From Escherichia coli O157:H7 (lineage in GTDB: Bacteria > Pseudomonadota > Gammaproteobacteria > Enterobacterales > Enterobacteriaceae): 64,000 nucleotides of DNA. Position numbers and translations under genes: made by a program. Location: the NCBI RefSeq assembly GCF_013167455.1, contig NZ_CP038328.1. One strand, given 5' to 3'. The notes below the pieces were generated by a model, which saw only the letters and a list, made by a program, of their open reading frames with translations, ran no database searches and was not told where the DNA came from. Shown here in pieces: positions 13,289-22,017 of the stretch. How positions within the stretch are numbered: position 1 is the first letter of the stretch; the number at the start of each line of letters is the position of its first letter.

Positions 13289-13387
13289 GCCTGATGCGGC
13301 GTGAACGCCTTATCAGGCCTACAAAATCATGCAAATTCAACATATTGCATAAACCACGTAGGCCTGATAAGCGTAGCGCATCAGGCA
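13289..13387. repeat. BIME: two REP elements in inverted orientation
   Basis: gcctgatgcggcgtgaacgccttatcaggcctac (13289-13322) and gtaggcctgataagcgtagcgcatcaggca (13358-13387) match the enterobacterial REP consensus. Confidence 0.85.
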
Positions 13388-16362: not shown

Positions 16363-17121
16363 ATGAAACAAACACAACGTCACAACGGTATTATCGAACT
16401 GGTTAAACAGCAGGGTTATGTCAGTACCGAGGAGCTGGTGGAGCACTTCTCCGTCAGCCCGCAGACTATTCGCCGCGACCTCAATGAGCTGGCGGAGCAA
16501 AACCTGATCCTGCGCCATCATGGCGGTGCGGCGCTGCCTTCCAGTTCGGTTAACACGCCGTGGCACGATCGTAAAGCCACCCAGACCGAAGAAAAAGAGC
16601 GCATCGCCCGCAAAGTGGCGGAGCAAATCCCCAATGGCTCGACGCTGTTTATCGATATCGGCACCACGCCGGAAGCGGTGGCGCACGCGCTGCTCAATCA
16701 CAGCAATTTGCGCATTGTCACCAACAATCTTAACGTTGCTAACACGCTGATGGTAAAAGAGGATTTCCGTATTATTCTCGCCGGTGGCGAATTACGCAGC
16801 CGCGATGGCGGGATCATTGGCGAAGCGACGCTCGATTTTATCTCCCAGTTCCGCCTTGATTTCGGCATTCTGGGGATAAGCGGCATCGATAGCGACGGCT
16901 CGCTGCTGGAGTTCGATTACCACGAAGTTCGCACCAAACGCGCCATTATTGAGAACTCGCGCCACGTTATGCTGGTTGTCGATCACTCGAAATTTGGCCG
17001 TAACGCGATGGTCAATATGGGTAGCATCAGCATGGTAGATGCCGTCTACACCGACACCCCGCCGCCAGTAAGCGTGATGCAGGTGCTGACGGACCACCAT
17101 ATTCAACTGGAGCTGTGCTGA
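16363..17121 (+). CDS. glpR: glycerol-3-phosphate regulon repressor (DeoR family)
   Basis: MKQTQRHNGIIELVKQQGYVSTEELVEHFSVSPQTIRRDL... 252 aa; start trimmed from 16312 to the ATG at 16363; 3' end overlaps the rtcR 3' end by 19 nt (convergent). Confidence 0.93.
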   Translation: MKQTQRHNGIIELVKQQGYVSTEELVEHFSVSPQTIRRDLNELAEQNLILRHHGGAALPSSSVNTPWHDRKATQTEEKERIARKVAEQIPNGSTLFIDIGTTPEAVAHALLNHSNLRIVTNNLNVANTLMVKEDFRIILAGGELRSRDGGIIGEATLDFISQFRLDFGILGISGIDSDGSLLEFDYHEVRTKRAIIENSRHVMLVVDHSKFGRNAMVNMGSISMVDAVYTDTPPPVSVMQVLTDHHIQLELC

Positions 17122-18701
17122 TCCTGCACGGCTTCCCACGTCAGACCAAAACGCGCCAGGTATTTGCGTAGCCGATCCGCGTCATTGACGCTGGCTTTGC
17201 CCTGGCGCGAAACGTCAAAAAGCTGGCGTCCGGCTGCGGAAAGCGACTTTGCCTGGCGGCAGATTGCGATAACGTGTTCCAGTTGCATACGGTCGAAGAG
17301 ATCGATGTTTTCTGCCTCTGCGCCCAGCAACGCCGTAAGCGCGGAGGGGCGGCTCTCCTGCCAGTTATAGCGCAGACGGTTTATCTCATCTTCAACCACG
17401 TCCAGAGTAATGCGTCCGCTAGAGGCAAAGGTTGCCATTCGCGTGACGCTGGCAGAAAGCTCGCGAAAGTTACCGCGCCATGTTGCCTGGGGAGATGTCG
17501 CAAAGGCCAGCCAGGCGCGCCGCGCTTCGGTGTTAAAACGCACGCTGTCGCCGGTGAGTGAAGCGTGGCGCTCCACTTCATAATCCAGGTTAGGTTCAAT
17601 ATCTTCCTGACGCTGGCGTAGCCCCGGCAGGGTGAAGGTCCAGAGATTGATCCGCGCGTATAGATCTTCGCGGAATTTGCCATCGGCAACCAGCTGGCGC
17701 AAATCACGCACCGTTCCGGCGATAAGCTGAAAATCACTGCTCACCTGGCGATCGCTGCCAAACGGATAAAAGGTTTTTTCTTCAATGGCTTTCAGCAGCA
17801 TTGCCTGTTCGTCTGCGCCCAGTTCGCCAATCTCATCAAGAAACAACATTCCGCCGTTGGCGCTGCGTAATAATCCTTCACGAGATTCCCGTGCCCCGGT
17901 AAACGCGCCTTTCACATGACCAAACAGCGTCGACATGGCGGTATCGCCGCGCAGGGTTGCGCAGTTCACTTCCACAAACGCGCCGCTAAACTGATGCCGC
18001 GCCTGTTTTAATTCAAATATACGTCGCGCCAGAAATGACTTGCCCGCACCGGTTGGGCCGTTTAGCAGGATCGGTGCGCGGGATTTAATCGCTACTTTTT
18101 CAATCTGCTCAATCATGCGGTTGAAGTGGGGGTTACGCGTGGCAATACCGGACTTAAGAAAATCAAGCGTTTGCTGGCGTTCCTCGGCAAAGCGGCTGGC
18201 GATGGCGTTATAAAGGCTTAAATCGAGATCGATAATCGTCACTTCACCTGCGCCGCGCGGCTGTTCTTTTTTGCGCGGAGGTGAAGATTGTATCAACCGG
18301 GCGGGCAGGTAACGCGCTTCAGCCAGCAGAAACCAGCAAATCTGCGCGACGTGGGTGCCGGTGGTGATGTGAATTAAATAGTCTTCTTTTTCTGGCTGAA
18401 ACTCGTAACCACGGGCGAAATCATGCAGGCAGGCGTAAACCTCTTCGAAATCCCACGGGTTATGCAGTTCAATCTCAACGCTCACCACTTCGGTTTCTGG
18501 CGAAACGCTGGCGATATCGCGTTTAAGCGTTTCAAATAGCGAGCGCGAGCGGGCGTCATGCAATAATTCCAGTCGATCGATGACTAACGATTCTTGCTGG
18601 CATATACAGAGTGACGGACGCCATTTCGACCAGCGCTGACTGCCGCGCCCGGCATAATCCAGCACTGTTCCGACAAAGCCAAAAGCCACTGTTTTACGCA
18701 T
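17103..18701 (-). CDS. rtcR: sigma-54-dependent transcriptional activator of rtcBA (CARF-AAA+-HTH)
   Basis: 532-aa ORF with GPTGAGKS Walker A and the GAFTGA sigma-54 interaction motif; divergent from rtcB. Confidence 0.95.
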
Positions 18702-18834
18702 CTTAGATATCCTTATAAAAGACGATATTTCATTATCGGTAAATTGGCTTTGCGGGAAATCTCCGTTTACGGACGTAAAGATATAATCTTTTTAAAACAA
18801 TGAATTAAAAAATTAATCTGCTTATTTAATTTTC

Positions 18835-18850
18835 TGGCACGACGGTTGCA
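18835..18850 (+). promoter_or_regulatory. sigma-54 (RpoN) promoter of rtcBA
   Basis: TGGCAC-gacgg-TTGCA, a perfect -24 GG / -12 GC element about 40 bp upstream of the rtcB ATG. Confidence 0.85.
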
Positions 18851-18888
18851 ATTATCAGGACCGCAAACAACGAAAAGAGAAAAACAAA

Positions 18889-20115
18889 ATGAATTACGAA
18901 TTACTGACCACTGAAAATGCCCCGGTAAAAATGTGGACCAAAGGCGTGCCGGTAGAAGCCGATGCGCGTCAGCAACTTATTAATACGGCGAAGATGCCGT
19001 TTATTTTCAAACATATTGCGGTAATGCCTGATGTACACCTGGGTAAAGGTTCCACCATTGGTAGCGTGATCCCGACCAAAGGGGCGATTATTCCGGCGGC
19101 GGTGGGCGTGGATATTGGCTGTGGAATGAACGCACTACGTACCGCTTTAACGGCGGCTGACCTGCCGGAAAACCTGGCGGAGCTGCGTCAGGCGATTGAA
19201 ACTGCGGTGCCGCACGGGCGTACCACTGGCCGTTGTAAACGTGATAAAGGCGCATGGGAAAACCCGCCTGTTAACGTCGATGCGAAATGGGCTGAGCTGG
19301 AGGCCGGTTATCAGTGGTTAACGCAAAAATATCCGCGTTTCCTTAACACTAACAACTATAAACACCTGGGAACGCTGGGAACGGGTAACCACTTTATTGA
19401 AATCTGCCTTGATGAGTCGGACCAGGTGTGGATTATGCTGCACTCCGGTTCACGCGGAATTGGTAATGCCATCGGGACTTACTTTATCGATCTGGCGCAA
19501 AAAGAGATGCAGGAAACGCTTGAAACATTGCCGTCGCGTGATCTGGCGTACTTTATGGAAGGTACGGAATACTTTGATGATTACCTGAAAGCCGTGGCCT
19601 GGGCGCAGCTTTTTGCCAGCCTTAACCGCGATGTGATGATGGAAAACGTAGTAACGGCGTTGCAGAGCATTACGCAGAAAACGGTCAGACAGCCACAAAC
19701 GCTGGCGATGGAAGAGATCAACTGTCACCACAACTATGTGCAAAAAGAACAGCACTTTGGTGAAGAGATCTACGTGACGCGTAAAGGCGCGGTGTCTGCG
19801 CGTGCTGGTCAATATGGAATTATTCCAGGGTCGATGGGAGCGAAAAGCTTTATCGTCCGTGGGCTGGGAAATGAAGAGTCGTTCTGTTCGTGCAGCCACG
19901 GTGCCGGGCGGGTTATGAGCCGTACTAAAGCGAAAAAAATGTTCAGCGTGGAAGATCAAATTCGTGCCACCGTGCATGTGGAATGCCGTAAAGATGCCGA
20001 AGTGATCGACGAAATCCCGATGGCGTATAAAGATATTGATGCGGTGATGGCGGCACAAAGCGATCTGGTGGAAGTTATCTACACCCTACGTCAGGTGGTG
20101 TGCGTAAAAGGATAA
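18889..20115 (+). CDS. rtcB: RNA-splicing ligase RtcB (3'-phosphate/5'-OH RNA ligase)
   Basis: 408-aa ORF, MNYELLTTENAPVKMWTKGVPVEADARQQL... Confidence 0.96.
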   Translation: MNYELLTTENAPVKMWTKGVPVEADARQQLINTAKMPFIFKHIAVMPDVHLGKGSTIGSVIPTKGAIIPAAVGVDIGCGMNALRTALTAADLPENLAELRQAIETAVPHGRTTGRCKRDKGAWENPPVNVDAKWAELEAGYQWLTQKYPRFLNTNNYKHLGTLGTGNHFIEICLDESDQVWIMLHSGSRGIGNAIGTYFIDLAQKEMQETLETLPSRDLAYFMEGTEYFDDYLKAVAWAQLFASLNRDVMMENVVTALQSITQKTVRQPQTLAMEEINCHHNYVQKEQHFGEEIYVTRKGAVSARAGQYGIIPGSMGAKSFIVRGLGNEESFCSCSHGAGRVMSRTKAKKMFSVEDQIRATVHVECRKDAEVIDEIPMAYKDIDAVMAAQSDLVEVIYTLRQVVCVKG

Positions 20116-21147
<1,032 letters not shown>

Positions 21148-21196
21148 AATCCCTCCCGGATCAGACTCATCAGTGTGACTATCCGGTAGAGGTAAA

Positions 21197-21682
21197 TTAC
21201 TCCAGAGTAATGGGATACAGTAAGGTAAGTGACTGGAATGGTGAAGGTACAAAGGCATACTTCAGATAGAAATTGCGTACTGAATCGTCTAAGGCATGAA
21301 CAATGAGCGCACGAACCCCTACCTGTTGAGCTATGGACATTGTGCGATAGACTGCATCTTTCAACAATGCGACGCCCAACCCTTTACCTGCCCAGGCTTG
21401 ATCAATTGCCAGTCTGCCTAATACGACAACAGGCAACGATTCGGGAGCATTACGTCGCATGGCTCCAGGGGCCAAATTACGTTGAATACTGCCTGTAGAA
21501 AGGCAGTAATAGCCGATTACCTGGCGGGTATTGGCAATACAGATAACGTAAACACGAGACAGACCGGAGCTGTGATTTTTTAACGCTTTCTTTTTTAGCC
21601 ATTCATTCATCCCGTGATCGGAACAGCAAAAGTCAGCCAGATTATGTTCAGACGTTAGGGGAGTAGGAGCCGTTATTCCCAT
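21197..21682 (-). CDS. GNAT-family acetyltransferase toxin (TacT/AtaT/ItaT-like; family members acetylate aminoacyl-tRNA)
   Basis: 161-aa ORF with acetyl-CoA-binding motif Q-x-x-G-x-G (QAWAGKGLG); start overlaps the upstream DUF1778-type ORF by 10 nt; N-terminus MGITAPTPL resembles TacT-like toxins. Confidence 0.8.
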   Translation of the reverse strand: MGITAPTPLTSEHNLADFCCSDHGMNEWLKKKALKNHSSGLSRVYVICIANTRQVIGYYCLSTGSIQRNLAPGAMRRNAPESLPVVVLGRLAIDQAWAGKGLGVALLKDAVYRTMSIAQQVGVRALIVHALDDSVRNFYLKYAFVPSPFQSLTLLYPITLE

Positions 21683-21957
21683 GGCGATTTACGATTCATC
21701 AACGCGTTAATTTTGGCCTGACGCTCAGCAGTGATGGGGGCGTCCAGGGCAGCGAGAAACGCATCGTATTGCTCGTCATCAAGGATGAATAGTCGTTGAT
21801 CTAATAAGATGTCTTGCGCTTCACGGCATGCGGCATCCAGCATAAAATCAGTGCGCGATTTTGCGACCAGATTCGCTGCCATATCAATCAGGTCACGCTG
21901 TGAGGCTTTCGCTCTGATATTGATTGGCGCTTCTTTGCTTTCCGGTTTCATATTCAT
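21673..21957 (-). CDS. DUF1778 / ribbon-helix-helix-like antitoxin partner of the GNAT toxin
   Basis: 94-aa ORF immediately upstream of and overlapping the GNAT gene; acidic small protein with N-terminal ...PINIRAKASQRDLIDMAA... typical of TacA/AtaR-class antitoxins. Confidence 0.75.
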   Translation of the reverse strand: MNMKPESKEAPINIRAKASQRDLIDMAANLVAKSRTDFMLDAACREAQDILLDQRLFILDDEQYDAFLAALDAPITAERQAKINALMNRKSPWE

Positions 21958-21960
21958 GAG

Positions 21961-22010
21961 CCTGTAGTGCGATTTTATATACAGTATAAAGAGTGTACAT
22001 AAAAACGCTA
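21961..22010 (-). promoter_or_regulatory. putative promoter/operator of the toxin-antitoxin operon
   Basis: AT-rich 60-bp spacer between the antitoxin start and the malT stop, containing inverted repeats TATAC-a-GTATA and TGTACA; inferred from the usual autoregulation of such operons, not demonstrated. Confidence 0.3.
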
Positions 22011-22017
22011 TACAAAC

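Follow-up and report, generated by a model that had tools for sequence, protein, structure and literature searches.

The 64-kb stretch of DNA analysed here, which we refer to as the window, contains the genes glpE, glpG, glpR, rtcR, rtcB, rtcA, a GNAT/DUF1778 pair and malT in this order, as judged from its open reading frames. rtcR is divergent from the operon that encodes the RtcB ligase and the RtcA cyclase, and all three genes are intact and free of frameshifts (Table 1). RtcR matches the NCBIfam equivalog model NF038308 from end to end with 847.8 bits, compared to a cutoff of 650, and differs by 7 substitutions from its K-12 counterpart, which is of equal length. Moreover, its translation contains the GAFTGA motif, and with RtcR a cognate AAA+ activator adjoins the promoter that is described below. 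RtcA is also full length, with a C-terminal tail that differs from that of K-12 (...VMITKLTD versus ...VSIE). The earlier note on this DNA had taken the promoter motif as confirmation that the rtcR/rtcBA unit is intact. The unit is indeed intact, with RtcR, RtcB and RtcA in full length, but the motif alone cannot show that. In E. coli O157:H7 PV15-279 the promoter is 100% identical, yet rtcR is annotated as a frameshifted pseudogene, which is devoid of the 11 bp CTGGCGAAACG (18497-18507 of the window) beside a CTGGCGA repeat. Therefore, identity of the promoter is no guarantee of a working circuit.

Several further properties of the neighborhood were noted. The 3' ends of rtcR and glpR are convergent and overlap by 19 bp (17103-17121), and glpR is an intact open reading frame in the window, in contrast to K-12 MG1655 with its annotated glpR pseudogene. 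Between rtcA and malT, about 0.9 kb (21125-22013) are present that are missing from K-12, where the spacer comprises 42 bp. The junction of this insertion lies within the last codons of rtcA and leads to the altered RtcA tail. The GNAT toxin encoded in the insertion is essentially identical to the PDB chain 7F37_B and belongs to the kin of the aminoacyl-tRNA acetyltransferase toxins TacT, AtaT and KacT. That a tRNA-targeting toxin module adjoins an RNA repair operon inducible by tRNA damage may be a coincidence. A scan of the whole window against Rfam gave no family in the rtc region, and the sole match at the gathering threshold is the sRNA ES036 (CssrF) at 13323-13365 (+) with 39.3 bits.

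Table 1. Features of the rtcR-rtcBA region and of the adjoining insertion. Positions are those of the window; centres are given relative to the predicted transcription start.
Feature	Position	Strand	Basis or remark
rtcR, sigma-54 enhancer-binding activator (CARF, AAA+, HTH), 532 aa, intact	17103-18701	-	ORF, NF038308
GATATC, overlapping GATA and TATC half-sites	18706-18711		5-10 bp from the rtcR start codon
Candidate RtcR enhancer (UAS), inverted repeat CGATAtttcatTATCG, GATA-N6-TATC	18723-18738		centre at about -130
Predicted AtoC site CGGAGATTTCCCGCAAAGCC, published as ChIP-positive	18746-18765	-	PMC3118216
Palindrome TTTACGgaCGTAAA	18766-18779		sequence read; centre at about -88
IHF-type core AAACAATGAATTA	18795-18807	+	1 mismatch to WATCAANNNNTTR, T/A tract before it; centre at about -60
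Sigma-54 core promoter CTGGCACGACGGTTGCAAT	18834-18852	+	PWM, K-12 identity, ChIP-seq motif OS35
Predicted transcription start C18861 (A18860 = -1)	18861	+	motif-centre rule, ApC primer
Predicted 28-nt rtcB leader, weak purine-rich RBS AAGAG at 18875-18879	18861-18888	+	
rtcB, RNA ligase, 408 aa	18889-20115	+	ORF; 4 substitutions versus K-12
rtcA, RNA 3'-phosphate cyclase, 342 aa	20119-21147	+	NF003247, 776 bits; PGAP start
GNAT toxin	21197-21682	-	
DUF1778 antitoxin	21673-21957	-	

Read directly from the window, the plus strand at 18835-18850 is TGGCACGACGGTTGCA. The -25/-24 GG (18836-18837) and the -13/-12 GC (18848-18849) are exactly 10 bp apart inside TGGCAC-N5-TTGCW, and the site is intergenic, lies a short distance 5' of rtcB and on the same strand, and is 134 bp away from the divergent rtcR start. 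The earlier note had named it a perfect -24/-12 element, and it is in fact the single exact match to TGGCAC-N5-TTGCA when both strands of the window are scanned. Such a match to the consensus could also arise by chance in an AT-rich intergenic region and have no promoter function, and 10/100 shuffled windows contain the bare 11-base pattern one or more times (mean of 0.11 exact matches). The exact string by itself is only modestly improbable in 64 kb, and for this reason the scan for RpoN promoters with a position weight matrix (PWM), which had already been suggested as a check, was run. The matrix was derived from 28 intergenic sites of Salmonella with ChIP support for sigma-54 (Table 3 in PMC3844500), from which the rtc orthologue (rsr) was excluded. 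On this scale the site reaches 19.87 bits, compared to a median of 19.07 bits for the training sites and a span of 16.3-23.7 bits for held-out training sites, whereas the next best score within the window is 12.06 bits. From the exact score distribution, 0.018 sites of at least 19.87 bits are expected per window on both strands, and a score as high as that of the site is reached somewhere in 3-6/200 shuffled windows. If only the 187 bp between rtcR and rtcB and the correct orientation are considered, however, the expectation is 2.4e-5. The background of the window fits the null, with 5 sites of at least 10 bits and 2 of at least 12 bits compared to 5.0 and 2.0 expected. The second-best sigma-54-like site, TGGCAGAAAGGTTGCGTG at 55406-55423 (+), accordingly agrees with chance, by which about 2 sites of at least 12 bits are expected per window.

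In the literature rtcBA is described as sigma-54-dependent and RtcR-activated, and -24/-12 elements, an IHF site and a UAS are ascribed to it (PMC5175333, PMC9650030). ChIP-seq of sigma-54 in K-12 revealed the occupied site OS35 with the motif CTGGCACGACGGTTGCA and an occupancy score (FAT) of 17, which is flagged as "experimentally confirmed" in EcoCyc (PMC4591121). This 17-mer equals window positions 18834-18850, and the element is flanked by rtcR on one side and rtcB-rtcA on the other, so that its assignment as the sigma-54 promoter of rtcB is well founded. The attribute "textbook" is appropriate as far as the match to the consensus is concerned, but it is no proof of strength, as the native rtc promoter was reportedly very weak in vitro. 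The occupancy of the identical K-12 sequence speaks as well against a match by chance.

With the rule of the ChIP-seq paper, in which 19 bp are added to the motif centre (here 18842), the transcription start is predicted at C18861 (PMC4591121). This nucleotide follows the -12 C by 12 nt and position 18850 by 11 nt, and it precedes the ATG of rtcB by 28 nt. The distance from the predicted start to the rtcB start is 28 bp also in K-12 (Table 1 of Bonocora, PMC4591121), and the dinucleotide ApC, which served as -1/+1 primer on native PrtcBA, matches A18860-C18861. The initial proposal of a start about 12 bp downstream of the element was therefore right in substance, and we infer C18861 as the exact start in this strain. 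Genschik and colleagues, to whose 1998 study the papers above refer for the original mapping, are said to have reported -12 and -24 elements together with a mapped start site. Position +2 (18862) is C in the window and A in K-12 and five further divergent E. coli lineages. A 14-nt direct repeat, AAAACAATGAATTA at 18794-18807 and AACAAAATGAATTA at 18883-18896, overlaps the IHF-type core with its first and the rtcB start codon with its second copy; the copies are 86% identical, and the repeat is probably due to chance.

A stretch of 301 bp around the site matches an E. coli O157:H7 chromosome with 100% identity, the core promoter is the same in the window and in K-12 MG1655, and the region is present in 4855/5426 complete E. 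coli genomes, the other 571 being without any match. The 32-bp core (18830-18861) is found exactly in 3330 complete genomes, and 1022 more differ solely in the outer 4 nt. Among seven divergent lineages, six carry the identical 16-mer and the seventh has TGGTAC. Two strains with altered promoter regions were encountered. E. coli B1.H1.39 has TGGTAC for TGGCAC at -24 (18838) as well as a 2-bp deletion and substitutions just past +1 (equivalent of 18863-18867), and in E. coli LB858871 copies of IS1A split rtcB and rtcR is lost, with homology starting at 18837 and thus a breakpoint inside the -24 element.

The architecture of the locus was compared with that of related rtcR loci in two steps. A tblastn search with RtcR against a collection of plasmids and chromids gave 14 full-length orthologue loci with 45-73% identity from alpha-, beta- and gamma-proteobacteria. 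In 10/14 of them, the best PWM site of the whole 6.5-7.6 kb locus is divergent from rtcR, with the -24 T at 124-160 bp from the rtcR start; the corresponding distance in E. coli is 134 bp. In Variovorax and Acinetobacter a strong sigma-54 site is located at the operon boundary, which is displaced there. The site of Bosea is weaker, and the PWM scan of the Phaeobacter rtcR locus gave no sigma-54 site. Furthermore, a DNA pattern derived from a conserved block of the RtcR N-terminus, which is free of promoter sequence, was validated on the known loci and scanned on metagenome contigs. This yielded 120 loci, and a true CARF domain of RtcR is encoded by 118 of them. Promoters were counted in 103 non-identical rtcR loci with 400 nt upstream, using a threshold of at least 12 bits. 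A sigma-54 site on the divergent strand is present in 58/103 loci, compared to 0/103 on the rtcR-sense strand and 0/168 in control windows. Its distance to the rtcR start has a median of 143 bp (IQR 130-147), and the consensus of the 58 sites is TGGCAC-G-N4-TTGC-A-A-T, an extended motif (TGGCACG-N4-TTGCAAT) that is also matched by the rtcB promoter of the window. Since the location expectation of 2.4e-5, the occupancy in K-12 and this recurrence in independent loci, at a like distance and never on the other strand, come together, the reading as a chance match is effectively refuted, and we attribute practically no probability to it. Because the divergent site and its constrained distance recur across rtcR loci, the promoter of the window is, at the level of sequence, a typical member of a widespread and conserved RtcR control region.

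The remaining 45/103 metagenome loci have no sigma-54 site of at least 12 bits within 400 nt upstream of rtcR, and the architecture is therefore common, but not universal. In these loci the promoter may be displaced, as it is in Variovorax and Acinetobacter, or the core elements may have diverged. A position-specific information profile, anchored either on the -24 element or on the rtcR start, gave nothing beyond the core promoter, which is due to the slightly variable offsets of the IHF and dyad elements. The first gene behind the RtcR-linked sigma-54 promoter varies. It is a Ro/TROVE gene in Rhizobium, Shinella, Methylosinus and Pseudomonas, and elsewhere it encodes a VWA protein (Xanthomonas), slipin together with a nucleotidyltransferase (Citrobacter plasmid) or a protein of RING finger family 4 (Variovorax). 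Acinetobacter has an RNase Z gene between rtcR and rtcB, and in Bosea a DarT gene follows rtcR.

Between the candidate enhancer and the -24 element the window contains an IHF-type core, which is in agreement with the IHF site ascribed to the rtc promoter in the literature (PMC5175333, PMC9650030); at the sequence level, the predicted order is thus enhancer, IHF site and core promoter. Cores with one mismatch are common in general, with 66 matches across the window compared to about 47 expected, and the informative part is therefore the position. The strand of the promoter carries an IHF-type core in 7/8 chromid and plasmid loci, at 31-53 bp upstream of -24. Among the 58 metagenome loci with a site, 28 have a core starting 30-70 bp upstream of -24; the opposite strand has 9 such cores, and the rest of the intergenic region has 2. 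In E. coli, the core AAACAATGAATTA is unchanged in seven divergent lineages.

The enhancer of RtcR was listed as "NK" (not known) in a 2016 review, and our literature search found no RtcR footprint or binding motif and no later definition of the enhancer. Dyads with 5-nt arms and spacers of 0-14 nt were enumerated in 55 loci, in the zone from the rtcR start to 50 bp upstream of -24. Dinucleotide shuffles give 108 +/- 12 inverted repeats for this zone and never more than 136, whereas 201 were counted. The top dyad TTATC/GATAA is found in 11/55 loci (shuffle mean 0.32, maximum 2), and shifted versions of it rank next. This dyad-versus-shuffle test replaced an enrichment of k-mers in the enhancer zone against the whole-locus background, which was rejected as it is confounded by the AT-rich intergenic composition and the rtcR RBS. 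The GATA/TATC half-sites are concentrated 100-150 bp upstream of -24 and cluster family-wide at a distance of at most 40 nt from the rtcR start. Regarding the spacers, TATC-N6-GATA was counted 17 times, GATA-N6-TATC 11 times, TATC-N16-GATA 6 times and every other arrangement at most 4 times, nearly all of them no more than twice; with the N6 spacing the half-sites are one helical turn apart (10-bp period). The dyad CGATAtttcatTATCG of the window is invariant in 6/7 divergent E. coli lineages, and its counterpart in Ralstonia is identical in 20/25 positions and situated at the same place. The exact GATA-N6 dyad is missing from about half of the loci. The HTH region of RtcR is highly conserved across loci, and a subgroup of the metagenome loci has CTAGC...GCTAG dyads in place of GATA together with a variant RtcR HTH (RSVV...L/M-KF). 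This variant accompanies the CTAG dyad in 3/3 loci compared to 0/14 GATA-type loci; however, with only 3 variant loci the covariation may be a clade effect and is not relied on here.

We regard the case as evenly balanced that the GATA-N6 dyad is the RtcR enhancer, and that RtcR control regions across Proteobacteria share a fixed layout, in which the dyad adjoins the rtcR start, an IHF-type core lies 30-70 bp upstream of -24, the promoter is TGGCACG-N4-TTGCAAT, and about 143 bp separate -24 from the start of rtcR. For the copy at 18723-18738 in particular, the odds are about even that it represents the RtcR UAS. As the dyad overlaps the rtcR leader, it would in this case probably also mediate autoregulation of rtcR. 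A reading that we rate somewhat below an even chance is that the GATA-N6 dyads are signals of rtcR itself, i.e., a sigma-70 promoter, an operator for another regulator or an RBS hairpin, and that the UAS is located elsewhere, e.g., at the palindrome TTTACGgaCGTAAA (18766-18779). The dyads overlap the RBS-like TTATCC (GGATAA on the rtcR strand) at no more than 40 nt from the rtcR start codon, and the MFE fold pairs GAUA with UAUC, both of which would fit such signals. However, the stability of the rtcR leader RNA does not exceed that of shuffles (z = 0.14), and folding thus gives no support to an RNA hairpin over the rtcR RBS. Arms of 4-5 bp with a fixed N6 spacer, and hence a 10-bp period of the half-sites, are typical of dimeric HTH sites, and the distance from the dyad zone to -24 is as tightly constrained (IQR 130-147 bp) as expected of an enhancer that is phased with an IHF bend. 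The conservation of the RtcR HTH and the pairing of its variant with the CTAG dyad point in the same direction. Moreover, a UAS that overlaps the promoter of its own activator has a precedent in pspF-pspA, which counts against rtcR's own signals as the explanation.

Binding of another regulator close by has been claimed. A 2011 paper assigned a site for AtoC, another sigma-54 activator, to CGGAGATTTCCCGCAAAGCC at -64 to -45 from rtcR in the rtcB-rtcR spacer (PMC3118216), which would also suit an operator function of this region. The AtoC site (18746-18765) could reflect cross-talk or be a false positive. The palindrome is conserved in 6/7 E. coli lineages, with G as first base in K-12, and is not a family-wide feature of the RtcR loci examined. 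The GATATC at 18706-18711 possibly provides extra RtcR half-sites or belongs to the RBS region of rtcR.

Considering all this, we are highly confident that the element at 18835-18850 is the sigma-54 promoter, dependent on an enhancer, from which the RNA-repair operon rtcBA is transcribed. The polymerase with sigma-54 would bind the -24 GG and -12 GC and form a closed complex that does not start by itself. The divergently encoded RtcR would be kept inactive by its N-terminal CARF domain until a signal of RNA damage appears; in the literature, RtcA and RtcB themselves have been proposed for this role together with tRNA fragments that end in a 2',3'-cyclic phosphate. RtcR would then oligomerise on the upstream enhancer and be carried to the polymerase by an IHF-type bend at about -60, and ATP hydrolysis would open the promoter, with transcription predicted to begin near C18861, 28 nt ahead of the ATG of rtcB. 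Sigma-54 occupancy, the dependence on RtcR and rpoN and the signal are taken from the literature and not from the window, whereas the motif, its statistical strength, the identity with K-12, the intact genes and the family-wide divergent sigma-54 site, IHF-type core and GATA-N6 dyad were computed here.

Sigma-54 could also bind the site, but leave it mainly poised, inert or even repressive in this strain, with rtcBA being transcribed chiefly from another, RtcR-independent promoter. Many sigma-54 sites of E. coli are indeed transcriptionally silent (PMC4591121), RtcR-independent induction has been noted to some extent in the literature, possibly via other promoters, and the window carries the C at +2. 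However, a consensus scan of 18600-18950 revealed no sigma-70-type promoter of at least 9/12 matches, which also leaves the rtcR promoter unplaced. Furthermore, the activity of PrtcBA-lacZ is RtcR-dependent in K-12, whose core sequence is the same, and RtcR is intact here, GAFTGA included. We therefore consider a mainly silent site very unlikely and retain the RtcR-activated promoter.

The sigma-54 promoter of rtcBA is thus already known, real, intact and ordinary, and it adds nothing to the knowledge of sigma-54 promoters in general. It serves as a reliable anchor for annotation, since it marks the predicted start of the rtcBA transcript, and it indicates that this O157:H7-like strain keeps a complete circuit of RtcR, sigma-54 and RtcBA. 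Published work ties the rtc system to the survival of ribosome-targeting antibiotics and tRNA-cleaving toxins. The by-products of the comparison, i.e., a rule for the spacing, the IHF core and a candidate GATA-N6 enhancer that emerged from about 70 related loci, appear modestly new as sequence-based predictions. The candidate RtcR site and the spacing rule could aid the annotation of RtcR regulons in organisms in which the first gene varies (Ro/TROVE, VWA, slipin, RNase Z).

The closest known system is the rtcBA promoter of K-12, which shares with the window the motif CTGGCACGACGGTTGCA, the 28-nt distance from the predicted start to the ATG, the divergent rtcR, the IHF-type core and the GATA-N6-TATC dyad. 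The 187/188-bp intergenic regions differ by 3 SNPs and one 1-bp indel, and the SNPs include C in the window versus A in K-12 at +2 and T versus G at 18766. Unlike K-12, the window has a different RtcA tail followed by the toxin-antitoxin insertion. The rsr-yrlBA-rtcBA operon's promoter in Salmonella Typhimurium (rsrp) is likewise RtcR- and sigma-54-dependent and divergent from rtcR, and its core TGGCACGCTGGTTGCAAT is identical to that of the window in 16/18 positions, with differences in the spacer only. This Salmonella promoter is ChIP-positive and was induced 71-fold by a promiscuous activator (PMC3844500). It drives rsr (Ro60) and Y RNAs before rtcBA, whereas E. coli is devoid of rsr and yrlBA, and a co-transcribed dinJ-yafQ module then follows at the place where the window has GNAT/DUF1778. 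A similar arrangement is that of pspF-pspA in E. coli, in which a divergent activator is combined with an enhancer at or over the activator's own promoter, followed by IHF and then by the -24/-12 element. PspF, which is under the control of PspA, lacks a sensory domain, in contrast to RtcR with its CARF domain. Moreover, the UAS of PspF, TAGTGTAATTCGCTAACT (2016 review), is unrelated to the GATA dyad of the rtc region. Promoters of the nifH type, which depend on NifA, IHF and sigma-54, also have a dyad UAS, an IHF bend and -24/-12 elements in that order, but the UAS of NifA is TGT-N10-ACA, unlike the GATA dyad. In vitro, sigma-54 binds much more strongly to the nifH core than to that of rtc, and the former has also replaced the latter in such work.
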